In this document: positions 30,243-51,419 of the stretch, one piece after another
Position numbering within the stretch: position 1 is the stretch's first letter
Layout of the letters: the number at the start of each line of letters is the position of its first letter
Assembly (NCBI GenBank): GCA_020161845.1
Contig: JAIUNK010000011.1
Span: forward strand, 41,669 to 105,668
Origin: Actinomycetota bacterium
Lineage (GTDB): Bacteria > Actinomycetota > Actinomycetes > Actinomycetales > Dermatophilaceae
DNA: 64,000 bases
Direction of reading: 5' to 3'
Notes under the pieces: model-generated
What the model was told of the DNA's origin: nothing
Seen by the model: the letters and a program-made list of their open reading frames with translations, nothing else
The model's database searches: none
Translations under genes and position numbers: made by a program

Positions 30243-30470
30243 CCACTGCCCGCTCGTCCGCCCATTCCAGCGCCGCCCTCTGCCCGCCATCCACTGCCGC
30301 CCCTTTTCCCCCTCGTCCACTGCGGCCCGTTGTCCCCCCTCGTCGACTGCCGCCCTCTTCGTGGCACTGCCGCCCCTCTTGAAGCAGGGCGGCAGTCGTG
30401 CGATTGGGGCGGCAGTCGTGCGATTGGGGCGGCAATCGTGCGATTGGGGCGGCAATCGTGCGATTGGGGC
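30243..30470. repeat. Intergenic repeat block: degenerate CACTGCCGCCC units followed by four 20-bp tandem units GGCA(G/A)TCGTGCGATTGGGGC
   Basis: Exact 20-nt period over 30391-30470; upstream GACTGCCGCCC (30345) is the reverse complement of GGGCGGCAGTC (30387). Confidence 0.85.
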
Positions 30471-31010: not shown

Positions 31011-31108
31011 GCGGCCACGGTCGTCCATGACGACCGGCGCCGGCGCGGACGGCGGGTCGGCGGGTCGGCGGGTCGGCTGGCGTCCCACGGCGCGCCTACG
31101 CTGGCGGG

Positions 31109-47802: not shown

Positions 47803-48533
47803 CGCGCGTCCTCCTCGGCGGTGGCGGCGTTCCCGGCGGGCGGCGGTTCGGGGGAGGACGGTGCCGCAGCGGTACGTCGTGCGCCGGGCCAGCCGGCGAC
47901 GACGGCGGCGGCCAGCGCTGCCACCAGCACGGGGACCCCGGCCGGCGTATGCGGCATGGCCACCAGGGTCAGGACGACCGCGATCACGGCGGTGGCCTGC
48001 GCCTCGCGGCGACGCAACCGGGGCCACAGCAAGGCGCAGAACGCTCCTGCGGCCGCGGCGTCCAGACCCCAGGTCCGCGGGTCGCCGAGGGTGTTGCCGA
48101 CCAGAGCTCCCGCCAGCGTCATGAGGTTCCAGAAGACGAACACCGCCACCCCGGTGAGCCAGAACCCGCGGCGGGCGTCGCCGCGGCCGCTCTGCGCCAT
48201 GGCGACCGCGGTGGACTCGTCGATGGTCAGGTGCGCGGCGGCCACCCGGCGCCAGCCGTGGAAGCCCAGCTCACGGGAGAGCTCCAGGCCGTACAGGCCG
48301 TTGCGGATGCCGAGCAGGCTGCTGGTCGCCACGGCGGTCGAGCCCAACCCTCCCGCGCCCAGGATGCCGACCACCGCGAACTGCGAGCCGCCGGTGAACA
48401 GCAGCGCGGACAGCGCCTGGGTCTGCCACAGATCGAGCCCGGCGGCCACCGAGAGAGCGCCGAAGCTCAGGCCGTAGGCGCCGGTAGCCACGCCGACCGA
48501 GAGGGACTGTCGGGCGACGGCGTCCAGCCGCAT
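47799..48533 (-). CDS. azlC: AzlC-family permease
   Basis: YGLSFGAL...AG......LSALLFTGGSQF, RNGLYG, HLTIDESTA, GLDAAAAGAF. Confidence 0.9.
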   Translation of the reverse strand: MRLDAVARQSLSVGVATGAYGLSFGALSVAAGLDLWQTQALSALLFTGGSQFAVVGILGAGGLGSTAVATSSLLGIRNGLYGLELSRELGFHGWRRVAAAHLTIDESTAVAMAQSGRGDARRGFWLTGVAVFVFWNLMTLAGALVGNTLGDPRTWGLDAAAAGAFCALLWPRLRRREAQATAVIAVVLTLVAMPHTPAGVPVLVAALAAAVVAGWPGARRTAAAPSSPEPPPAGNAATAEEDAR

Positions 48534-49159
48534 CACGCCTCGTCGACCCCGCTGTCGCGCGACTCGTCGCCGGCCGGCGACCGGTCGGTGACCCGCGGGG
48601 CGGCGGCAGGATCCGGCGCGATGGAGGCCGCGAACCGTGCTTCCAGCACCGTCCGGCCGTCGGGGTCGACGATGCGCTCGCGGCGCGCCCGATCCGGGCC
48701 GAAACCCGCCCCCTGGAGGAAGGTCCGGGTTCGCTCGTGGGAGACCAGGACCCAGGCGGTGAGCAGCCCCGCCCCGCGGTCCCGGGCCAGATCGGTCGCG
48801 GCGGCCAGCAGCCGGCTGCCATGCCCGGCGCCGCGCCGGTGCACGGCCACGCCGCCGACGAGCAGTTCGACGGCGCCGGCACCGGCTAGGTCGGGATCCT
48901 CGCTGGGACCGAGCGCGACCAGGCCGACGACGTCGCCTCCCGCGTGGGCCAGCAGCAGCGCGTGATCGGGCTGGGTCGGTGGGGTCAGCGACGCGCGCCA
49001 TGCGGCGGCGAACGCCTCGGCGGTGCTCACGGCCAAGGCCTGCGGGGGAAGGTCGTCGGCGTAGGCGTCCCGCCAGAGCTCTGCCTGGATCCGGCCGACC
49101 GTCTCGGCGTCCCCGGCACCCGCCTGTCGGACGCCGACATCGCTGTGGATCCTGCTCAT
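48533..49159 (-). CDS. GNAT-family acetyltransferase
   Basis: W..AY...LP, HRRGAGHGSRLL, AWVL......RTFL...GF..D. Confidence 0.85.
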   Translation of the reverse strand: MSRIHSDVGVRQAGAGDAETVGRIQAELWRDAYADDLPPQALAVSTAEAFAAAWRASLTPPTQPDHALLLAHAGGDVVGLVALGPSEDPDLAGAGAVELLVGGVAVHRRGAGHGSRLLAAATDLARDRGAGLLTAWVLVSHERTRTFLQGAGFGPDRARRERIVDPDGRTVLEARFAASIAPDPAAAPRVTDRSPAGDESRDSGVDEA

Positions 49160-49431
49160 TCGCGCATCCTGTCAGACCGACTCGGCGGGCCGTGGCCGGG
49201 GTGGGATTTCAACCGGCGCGGCGGAATGTGATCGAGAGGGAGTCGCCGGGGGTGGCTCGGATCGGGCAGACTTCGGGTGGGAGGAGTATCCCGAGGCAGC
49301 TCGGGAGGTCGCCGGTGCGGCGCGTACCCGAGCCTGGGGGTCGGTTGGGGTGCGCGCCGCCTGGTGTGTCGCCCTGCAGTAGCGCCCGTGTGTCGCCCTG
49401 GCATGGCCCCCGTGCCCCGCGGTCAGCCGCC

Positions 49432-49953
49432 TCAGCGTCGTCGATAGGTCACGAAGGCGAACGCCCACCGGTCGTCGCGCTCCGCGACCCTCCAGTCGGT
49501 CGCGGGCAGCTCCGGAAACCGGGTGGCGCCATCGGCGGGCGCGTCGACCTCGGTGAGTTCGACCCGAGCGGCCGCCGGCAGCAGCGCCGCGTAGACCTCG
49601 CCACCGCCCAGGACCCAGATCTGTTCGCCGCCGGGGAGCCCCGCGGCGAGGTCGAGCGCCCGTTGCGGGTCGGCGGCGGCCGTCGCGCCCGAGGCCGACC
49701 AGCCGGCCCGACGGGTCAGCACGACGCTGGGCCGGCCCGGCAGGGCCGCGCCGATCGCGTCCCACGTGCGCCGGCCCATGATGACGGGATGGCCCCTGGT
49801 CAATCGCAGGAACCGGCGCAGATCCTCGCGCAGGTGCCAGGGCTGATCGGCGCCGTCACCGATCACGCCGTTGGCGGCCACCATGGCGATCAACGCCACC
49901 TCGCTCCCCGCGGGGGCGCTGGGGGATGCCGGAGGTGAGGCGGGCCCGGTCAT
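49432..49953 (-). CDS. folA: Dihydrofolate reductase
   Basis: IAMVAANGVIG, PWHLREDLRRF..LT.GHPVIMGRRTW, LPGR..VVLTR, VLGGGEVY, DGATRFP. Confidence 0.95.
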   Translation of the reverse strand: MTGPASPPASPSAPAGSEVALIAMVAANGVIGDGADQPWHLREDLRRFLRLTRGHPVIMGRRTWDAIGAALPGRPSVVLTRRAGWSASGATAAADPQRALDLAAGLPGGEQIWVLGGGEVYAALLPAAARVELTEVDAPADGATRFPELPATDWRVAERDDRWAFAFVTYRRR

Positions 49954-50029
49954 GGCGCGCTCGACTCGGGCCCGGTCATGGCGCGCTCGACTCGGGCCCG
50001 GTCATGGCGCGCTCGACTGGCTCGGTCAT
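49941..50029 (-). repeat. 26-bp tandem repeat x3 plus a variant, encoding AUGA-coupled mini-ORFs between thyA and folA
   Basis: Units at 49941, 49967 and 49993; mini-ORFs 50029-49976 ([17 protein letters not shown]) and 49979-49950 (MTGPESSAP). Confidence 0.85.
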
Positions 50030-50817
50030 ACCGCGATCGGAGCCTTGATGGCCGGATGGGGGTCGTAGTCGAGCAGCTGCACGTCCTCGATGGCGTAGTC
50101 CTCCAGGCGCGGCCGCGGCGTCAGCGCCAACCGGGGCAGTGCCCGGGGGGTGCGGGTGAGCTGCTCGCGGGCCTGGTCGAGGTGGTTGAGGTAGAGGTGC
50201 GCGTCGCCCAGGGTGTGCACGAAGTCGCCGACCCGCAACCCGGTGACCTGGGCGACCATGTGGGTCAGCAGGGCGTAGCTCGCGATGTTGAACGGAACGC
50301 CCAGGAAGATGTCGGCGCTGCGCTGATAGAGCTGGCAGGACAGTGCGCCGTCGGCCACGTAGAACTGGAACAACGCGTGACACGGCGGCAACGCCATCGC
50401 GTCGACCTCGGCCACATTCCAGGCCGAGACGAGATGCCGCCGGCTGTCGGGGTTGGTGCGGATGCCGTCGACCACCCTGGCGATCTGGTCGATCGTGCCA
50501 CCGTCGGGGGTCGGCCAGGACCGCCACTGGTGACCGTAGACGGGGCCGAGCTCGCCATCCTCGTCGGCCCACTCGTTCCAGATGGTGATGCCGTGCTCCT
50601 GCAGCCAGCGCACGTTGGTGCTGCCAGACAGGAACCAGATCAGCTCGCCGACGATCGAGCGCAGATGCAGCCGTTTGGTGGTGAGCGCGGGGAAGCCGGC
50701 GGCCAGGTCGAACCGCATCTGATGGCCGAAGACGGACAGCGTGCCGGTGCCGGTGCGGTCGTCGCGACGGGTGCCCTCGGCCAGGACCCGGCGCAGGAGT
50801 TCGTGGTAGGCCTGCAT
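50026..50817 (-). CDS. thyA: Thymidylate synthase
   Basis: [45 protein letters not shown]; TAGGGT -10 6 nt before ATG. Confidence 0.98.
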
Positions 50818-50948
50818 GGGTTCACCCTAGGGAGCGGGGCCGACAACGCTGCGCAGGCGGAGCCTGGAAGGAGACCGACCGGCCCCGGACCACGTCGAAT
50901 CGACCGAAACGAACCGACTCGCCCGGTCGAGTCGGCCGCCGGGATTGC

Positions 50949-50964
50949 TGTGAAGAGGGTCACA
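50949..50964. promoter_or_regulatory. Perfect CRP/GlxR-type box in the thyA-rnj intergenic region
   Basis: TGTGA-AGAGGG-TCACA. Confidence 0.6.
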
Positions 50965-51419
50965 CCAGGAAAGCCTCGGGAGTTCGGTAACGCGGCGGGC
51001 GCACCGGCGATACACCGTACGGTCGCGGCGCCACCCGAACCCCCGAGCGGGGTGGCGCCGCGGTCCGCTGCTTCGGGGTTGTCGTGGGCGGCTGTGCCGT
51101 CAGTGGTCAGCTCCGGATCGCGTCCGGTCGCGGCGTCCGACCGATGTGGAGTCGACATCTCCGCGCCGGTCCGACCAGACGTGACCGAACCGCCGGCGCG
51201 CGACCCCTCGTCGCGATGCCGCCGGAACGGTCGATGGCGTACGGCGCGGGTCCCAGCGGCCCGCGCCGTACCCGTGCCTGCCGACCCCGCGCCGCCGTAC
51301 CAGCCCGTGCCGAGGCCGCGCCGCCGCGGCCGGCGATTCGGGCGCTGTCGGCCCCTGGCGCTACCGTGAACTCACGGGTGCAGCCGCTGCCCGTACCCGC
51401 ACGCGTCGCCAGGAGCCCT

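Follow-up and report, generated by a model that had tools for sequence, protein, structure and literature searches.

How does a gene that the cell needs survive the growth of a repeat in front of it when each added unit shifts the reading frame? This question is raised by the thyA-folA junction of a Dermatophilaceae actinobacterium (GCA_020161845.1, contig JAIUNK010000011.1), which was studied in a window of 64,000 nt (i.e., the whole stretch of DNA that was analysed). At this junction, a tandem array of 26-nt units links four reading frames on the minus strand, in the order thyA, a 17-codon ORF, a 9-codon ORF and folA, and each of the joints between them is an ATGA. The features concerned are the following, all on the minus strand.

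50026..50817, minus strand: thyA, encoding a thymidylate synthase of 263 aa (PF00303, E 6e-124, residues 2-263), with its stop TGA at 50028..50026.
50026..50029, minus strand: ATGA overlap, read from the sequence, with the thyA stop nested in ATG 50029 (referred to as ATG0).
50006..50029, minus strand: degenerate 24-nt leader copy ATGACCGAGCCAGTCGAGCGCGCC, the 69% copy of the repeat search, outside the perfect array.
50018-49993, 49992-49967 and 49966-49941, minus strand: three perfect 26-nt units AGTCGAGCGCGCCATGACCGGGCCCG, the variable part, with CCTCACC... after the last one.
49976..50029, minus strand: mini-ORF 1, 17 codons and a TGA at 49978..49976, its stop overlapping ATG 49979.
49950..49979, minus strand: mini-ORF 2, 9 codons (MTGPESSAP) and a TGA at 49952..49950, its stop overlapping the folA ATG 49953.
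49432..49953, minus strand: folA, encoding a dihydrofolate reductase (DHFR) of 173 aa when read from the ATG in the final unit (PF00186, E 3e-39).
49900..49953, minus strand: N-terminal extension of folA MTGPASPPASPSAPAGSE, 18 codons ahead of the DHFR core (Pfam match from residue 19).
49897..49909, minus strand: alternative start, consisting of GGGGAG (49909..49904), a 4-nt spacer and GTG 49899 (from the duplex with the 16S 3′ end).

The 3′ end of thyA reads ...GCG GTA TGA, and the A before the TGA forms ATG0 together with the TG of that stop; the same ATG is the folA start in relatives and in an allele with a single unit. The leader ATGACCGAGCCAGTCGAGCGCGCC that begins here aligns as a homologue of the 5′ end of the folA extension in a relative (G005), and mini-ORF 1 holds a further in-frame ATG at 50005. 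The thyA stop, the start codons at 50029, 49979 and 49953 and the peptides read from them were all found in the sequence as a preliminary description of the locus had given them. With a stop/start overlap of 4 nt in one mRNA, the junction shows the arrangement (i.e., an overlap of 4 or 1 nt) by which coupled gene pairs are recognised, and a scan between the two genes yielded no promoter-like or terminator-like site. Neither strand of the region 49300-51200 gave an Rfam match at E<=1.

Beyond folA and a gap of 272 nt lies a gene for a GNAT acetyltransferase of 208 aa (48533-49159 of the window, minus strand), whose stop codon and the start codon of the next gene, of the AzlC family, overlap; this order is kept in all contigs of the strains. 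On the other side, the divergent spacer between thyA and the RNase J gene (50818-51083) shows hundreds of mismatches in an ungapped comparison with three strains (L055, L058 and L059). These strains are near-identical elsewhere, and the mismatches upstream of thyA indicate indels in the divergent promoter region.

Tandem Repeats Finder described the array at 49941..50029 as having a period of 26, 3.5 copies and 95% matches, and a repeat search resolved it into three units of 100% identity and one degenerate copy of 69%, offset by 24 nt. When the window was dinucleotide-shuffled 100 times, the unit never found a match. Moreover, with up to three mismatches allowed, it matched this array alone in the 4.39-Mb genome and the window. 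A dispersed element was thereby ruled out, the unit occurring at no other genomic site. An origin of the duplication through microhomology was likewise considered and found unsupported; perfect periodicity stops at 78 nt.

The consequences of a change in copy number were followed by rebuilding the junction in silico with one to six units. With one unit, ATG0 is in frame with folA and opens a protein of 181 aa that carries an N-terminal extension of 26 aa. With two or more units (n), exactly n-1 mini-ORFs arise, one of 17 codons and the others of 9 codons, with ATGA at every joint, and the start of folA falls on the ATG in the final unit; each added unit brings one more 9-codon ORF. This happens automatically because the unit contains ATGA (in ATGACC) and because 26 equals -1 modulo 3. 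The chain of stop-restart events that the preliminary description had proposed is thus arithmetically sound for every copy number from two upwards, and its claim that folA is not inactivated also stood, an in-frame ATG nested in ATGA being retained at every copy number. An in-frame extension had further been expected with either one or four copies, and this was borne out for one copy only: from two units onwards the outcome is mini-ORFs, and with four units the frame of ATG0 always meets a TGA at offset 51.

Such arithmetic had to be read against the background of the genome. Non-overlapping tandem arrays with a period of at least 8, at least 2.5 copies and at least 90% matches numbered 314 in the 4.39 Mb (82 contigs). 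As judged by crude, greedy gene calls based on GC3, the period was divisible by 3 in 150 of the 175 arrays inside genes; the arrays at gene edges comprised 15, 11 and 24 with periods of 0, 1 and 2 modulo 3, respectively, and spacers and edges showed all classes. Relays of the formal kind, in which overlaps of -4 or -1 lead from the stop of a gene through ATG, GTG or TTG starts into an ORF of at least 60 codons, were common in this GC-rich genome, with 164 cases. A CRISPR array (G000:C6:57700-58750; repeat ATTCCCCGCACACGCGGGGATGATCC, period 61) even displayed eight ATGA-linked ORFs of 41 codons, because 2x61 = 122 is again -1 modulo 3. Since this array is not translated, it is a useful negative control: a relay pattern alone is no evidence of translation, and any periodic sequence of the 3n-1 type that contains ATGA will resemble a relay. 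Given these 164 formal relays and the eight-step ATGA chain in the CRISPR array, the idea of attaching statistical weight to the pattern was dropped. Self-relaying 3n-1 arrays between co-directional genes were seen in 8 of 25 cases on the sense strand and in 1 of 25 on the antisense strand; this enrichment was set aside as a signal, for it largely reflected units that include the TGA of the upstream gene, most of them far from the next gene.

Other arrays in the genome were recorded in passing. One at G000:C16:19596-19743 is a perfect 26-nt repeat of 5.7 copies ATGACCGGTTCACCGGTCTGATCCCG between two minus-strand genes, with a GTGA per unit on the gene strand that creates self-relaying ORFs of 9 codons; the downstream gene starts ca. 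65 nt beyond. Another, at G000:C37:20305-20355, has an 11-nt unit (4.6 copies) directly after a gene stop and forms TGATG-chained mini-ORFs reading ATG-TCC-CGC-TGA (i.e., MSR-stop). Its unit resembles the start of the next gene ATGTCACGC (MSR...), whose ATG, preceded by AAGGAG, lies ca. 60 nt downstream. In the window itself, a 20-nt unit GGGCGGCAATCGTGCGATTG is repeated 4.2 times at 30387-30470 and an 11-nt unit 4.4 times at 1684-1731, both intergenic according to the crude gene calls, and an 8-nt unit 4.5 times at 31041-31077.

Whether the number of units at the thyA-folA junction actually varies was examined in public assemblies found by an exact-protein look-up. After removal of duplicate contigs, 22 independent assemblies remained beside the window, and their flanks differed at 12 variable sites in 1326 aligned nt, so that they represent one species. 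Units were counted from these assemblies, not from reads. A single unit was found in one short contig of an NCBI MAG (GCA_020439125), an allele reached solely via a gene call of 173 aa (L074). Two units were present in eight non-Logan assemblies, i.e., four ERZ272335xx (MEGAHIT, k141), ERZ965297 (wastewater, k127), ERZ27309110, GCA_023957955 and JGI 3300009517, as well as in five Logan contigs. Three units were present in seven JGI samples and ERZ28655559, in addition to the window. The Logan contigs were not counted for two versus at least three units, because at k=31 the two states cannot be separated, the three-unit form containing every 31-mer of the two-unit form.

It might be objected that the true number of units is single or fixed and was merely expanded or collapsed by the assemblers, since assemblers of the De Bruijn type are able to collapse periodic stretches, and the Logan contigs do not separate two units from three. 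However, the array of 78 nt is smaller than the final k-mer size that most assemblies used (k127 and k141), and the two- and three-unit states were each obtained in more than one pipeline: three units in eight public assemblies and the window, and two in the eight non-Logan ones, across JGI assemblies, MEGAHIT assemblies and NCBI MAGs. Moreover, in the two-unit allele of JGI 3300009517 one of the units carries a T>A SNP, which tells it apart from the other. We therefore regard an assembly artefact as highly improbable. The identical flank haplotype TGAGCTAGGCAA carried two units in two samples and three units in four, and a haplotype with ATC (Ile) in place of AGC in the extension occurred with one, two and three units. 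Different copy numbers on identical haplotypes indicate that the copy number changes recurrently, and faster than point substitutions arise. The suggestion that the repeat is a VNTR is hence supported, with one, two or three units among the 22 assemblies of this wastewater species.

The origin of the array was traced in 24 relatives at the level of genus, family and order. In these, thyA nearly always ends in GTATGA, and in 13 of the 24 folA starts in frame and stop-free at the ATG nested in the thyA stop, with extensions of 2-39 aa. Within the genus, five of the six species have a highly variable in-frame folA extension, 13-39 residues long, in which Pro, Ala, Ser, Thr and Gly abound, whereas outside the genus the DHFR core begins 2-3 codons after the start (M-T/S-x-V...). 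Most of the genus has GTC or ATC as the first codon of the core, and since neither is a start codon, the extension must be translated in those members. The closest relative (G005; ThyA 88% and DHFR 82% identical) likewise has GTC as first codon of the core, and its extension of 28 aa can be aligned, over the full length of both, with the 26 aa that extend DHFR in the one-unit allele, and both end in APAGSEV; the 26-nt repeat is absent from G005. Judging from this alignment, the one-unit, ATGA-coupled and in-frame state looks ancestral, and the two- and three-unit alleles are recent tandem expansions of the piece of the extension that includes Met9-Thr10 (ATGACC). By the same comparison, the 18-codon extension MTGPASPPASPSAPAGSE in the window is the remnant of the ancestral extension of 26 aa. 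The homology with the G005 extension, which derives the unit from local folA sequence, also argues against an insertion.

A sister species (G002, L005) carries an in-frame triplication of 18 nt ACCGCCGACCCGCACACG (TADPHT three times) within its folA extension of 39 aa. This triplication lies in the matching segment, which is thus repeat-prone and weakly constrained.

A cell that relies on ThyA needs DHFR. In the whole genome, DHFR_1 is represented by a single gene, and there is no thyX, so that the two- and three-unit alleles must still make DHFR. Pairing with the 16S 3′ end, which is canonical in this genome, was calculated over the 20 nt upstream of each start and amounted to -2.8 kcal/mol for ATG0 and -3.0 kcal/mol for the ATGs of the units, weaker than the mean of -4.3 kcal/mol at random positions of the window. 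Such a near absence of Shine-Dalgarno (SD) pairing would suit unit ATGs that rely on a terminating ribosome. The predicted folding of the junction RNA became stronger with copy number, with z-scores against shuffles of -0.55, -1.5, -3.9 and -4.2 for one to four units, because the units (GGGCCC, GCGCGC) pair with one another. This stronger predicted structure would disfavour de novo entry of ribosomes and favour dependence on upstream translation.

Comparable events are on record: termination-reinitiation at -4 overlaps has been documented in bacteria and archaea (PMC6728339), and a review describes short ORFs that bring ribosomes to a downstream gene (PMC12548453). Of five gene pairs in E. coli, three lost 60-90% of their re-initiation when the SD was removed, and a fourth lost it altogether (PMC6728339). 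By analogy, three successive SD-less re-initiation steps could be inefficient.

The array might instead be a passive spacer, i.e., a tolerated intercistronic insertion, with the folA of two- and three-unit alleles initiated independently at GTG 49899 or de novo at the last ATG, so that translation of the mini-ORFs would be irrelevant. The GTG is preceded by GGGGAG at 4 nt, with a duplex of -7.5 kcal/mol versus the -3.0 of the unit ATGs, the Pfam match to DHFR starts exactly there, and one public annotation has a DHFR of 155 aa from this codon. In addition, many of the 314 tandem arrays lie at gene edges or in spacers, and an expansion at this site needs no function. Against this stands the genus, in which GTC or ATC mostly takes the place of this codon and translation of the extension begins at the ATGA. 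A start at GTG 49899 would also leave the N-terminus of DHFR 2-3 residues shorter than the family norm (M-T/S-x-V...), the spacer of 4 nt between SD and GTG is short, and the structure predicted for the three-unit array would hinder de novo entry nearby. Weighing both sides, we find independent initiation of folA unlikely, though a serious competitor. In an exact look-up, neither the hypothetical 181-aa protein of the one-unit allele (from ATG0) nor a 155-aa DHFR was present in the sequence collection.

The explanation that we favour, and hold to be probable, is that of an ancestral in-frame extension that was expanded, with a relay that re-initiates into folA as a by-product. In the starting state, as judged by the comparison, translation of folA began at the ATG in the thyA stop and its product bore a poorly constrained extension of ca. 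26 aa, rich in Pro, Ala and Ser, an arrangement that the one-unit allele has retained. A 26-bp piece of this extension, with its internal Met-Thr (ATGACC), has been tandemly duplicated, giving one to three units among strains. Each added unit shifts the upstream frame, which thereby ends on the TGA within the ATGA of the next unit. Ribosomes leaving thyA may accordingly re-initiate at successive ATGAs and start folA at ATG 49953, in which case DHFR would bear an extension of 18 aa rather than 26 aa. Such a relay would account for the tolerance of a frameshifting expansion before the sole DHFR gene. It would be a built-in by-product of the duplicated piece, filtered by selection, rather than a designed regulator; as a filter, selection would plausibly remove those expansions that sever folA from a start. 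With more units, the translation of folA is probably somewhat lower, owing to the extra re-initiation steps and the RNA pairing between units.

Another reading puts copy number to use. As had been suggested when the repeat was first described, it might tune the DHFR:ThyA ratio, and hence antifolate tolerance, by way of re-initiation. Copy number would then act as a contingency switch, each re-initiation step counting towards the setting, and the variation would be kept by fluctuating selection, e.g., by trimethoprim in sewage. In line with such a role, copy number changes recurrently on identical haplotypes, every unit adds a re-initiation step as well as more predicted structure, folA is the only DHFR gene, and the sample names point to a wastewater habitat. 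Nevertheless, three copy-number states were seen and no others, a duplicated segment yields the pattern automatically (about one third of random junction duplications would have a length of 3n-1), and with hundreds of other tandem repeats in the genome, selection is not required to account for frequent local mutation. The in-frame 18-nt repeat at the matching place in the sister species further points to a mutation-prone, weakly constrained segment. An adaptive tuner of dosage is therefore improbable in our judgement, and the polymorphism is most likely nearly neutral.

Contingency loci are phase-variable simple-sequence repeats in coding regions, where the gene is off in two of the three frames. 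The thyA-folA array shares with them a slippage-prone repeat that is not a multiple of three and lies near the 5′ end of a gene, but differs in that each unit supplies an in-frame ATG, so that there is no OFF state. One could thus conceive of a frame-proof contingency locus in which slippage sets DHFR against ThyA in steps, folA is never off and the variation is maintained by antifolates; we consider this an improbable proposition. In such a locus, the setting would depend on the number of SD-less termination-reinitiation steps and on the strength of RNA pairing between units. On this improbable view, and if the bias of gene-edge repeats towards 3n-1 periods (24 versus 11 of 3n+1) is real, self-coupling junction repeats would represent a general and selectable way of retuning operon stoichiometry in repeat-rich actinobacteria.

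The closest known kind of element is the MIRU-VNTR of mycobacteria. MIRUs are units of 40-100 bp that are present at ca. 40-50 mycobacterial loci in variable number and are transcribed within operons (PMC3184786, PMC12548453). The ends of their ORFs overlap the flanking genes by -4 nt, which is thought to allow insertion with minimal impact (PMC3184786, PMC12548453), and the type locus of MIRU-VNTRs (Supply et al. 1997) is the intercistronic array of senX3-regX3 (via PMC3184786, PMC12548453). In both cases, tandem units that vary among strains lie between two co-transcribed genes, and unit ORFs in the same orientation overlap the stops and starts of their neighbours by 4 nt, which at the thyA-folA junction takes the form of ATGA at all joints. 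In contrast, MIRUs are dispersed and apparently mobile, whereas the thyA-folA unit is unique in its genome; they measure 40-100 bp as compared to 26 bp; and they belong to Mycobacterium, while the present unit belongs to another actinobacterial family and arose locally out of the sequence that codes for the folA extension. The array thus resembles a MIRU array in its working and is not a member of that class.

Two further systems share parts of its layout. The ATGA and TGATG overlaps of termination-reinitiation (Huber et al. 2019, PMC6728339; PMC12548453) have the same -4 overlap that is found here at every joint, and in both settings SD-less downstream starts would be expected to require the ribosome arriving from upstream; the ancestral junction of thyA and folA is a plain example. 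The array differs from them in that up to three joints are chained via throw-away ORFs of 17 and 9 codons. Leader ORFs and the bicistronic design (PMC12548453) are similar in that a mini-ORF without function of its own terminates at the start codon of the gene proper and can open up local RNA structure; however, the leader ORF of these cassettes contains an SD and their copy number is fixed, while the units described here are SD-less and variable.

For practical purposes, strains of this activated-sludge organism could be told apart by means of the locus, and it is one at which gene callers place the folA start inconsistently, giving proteins of 173 or 155 aa. The strains also offer a natural allelic series of one, two and three units with otherwise identical flanks, which is usable for measuring the efficiency of successive SD-less re-initiation, a quantity that is missing from the coupling literature (PMC6728339). 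If the relay is translated, this operon junction would absorb frameshifting expansions and keep its essential downstream gene through the combination of ATGA and a 3n-1 unit length, and the array would be a non-mobile, locally generated counterpart of the MIRUs.
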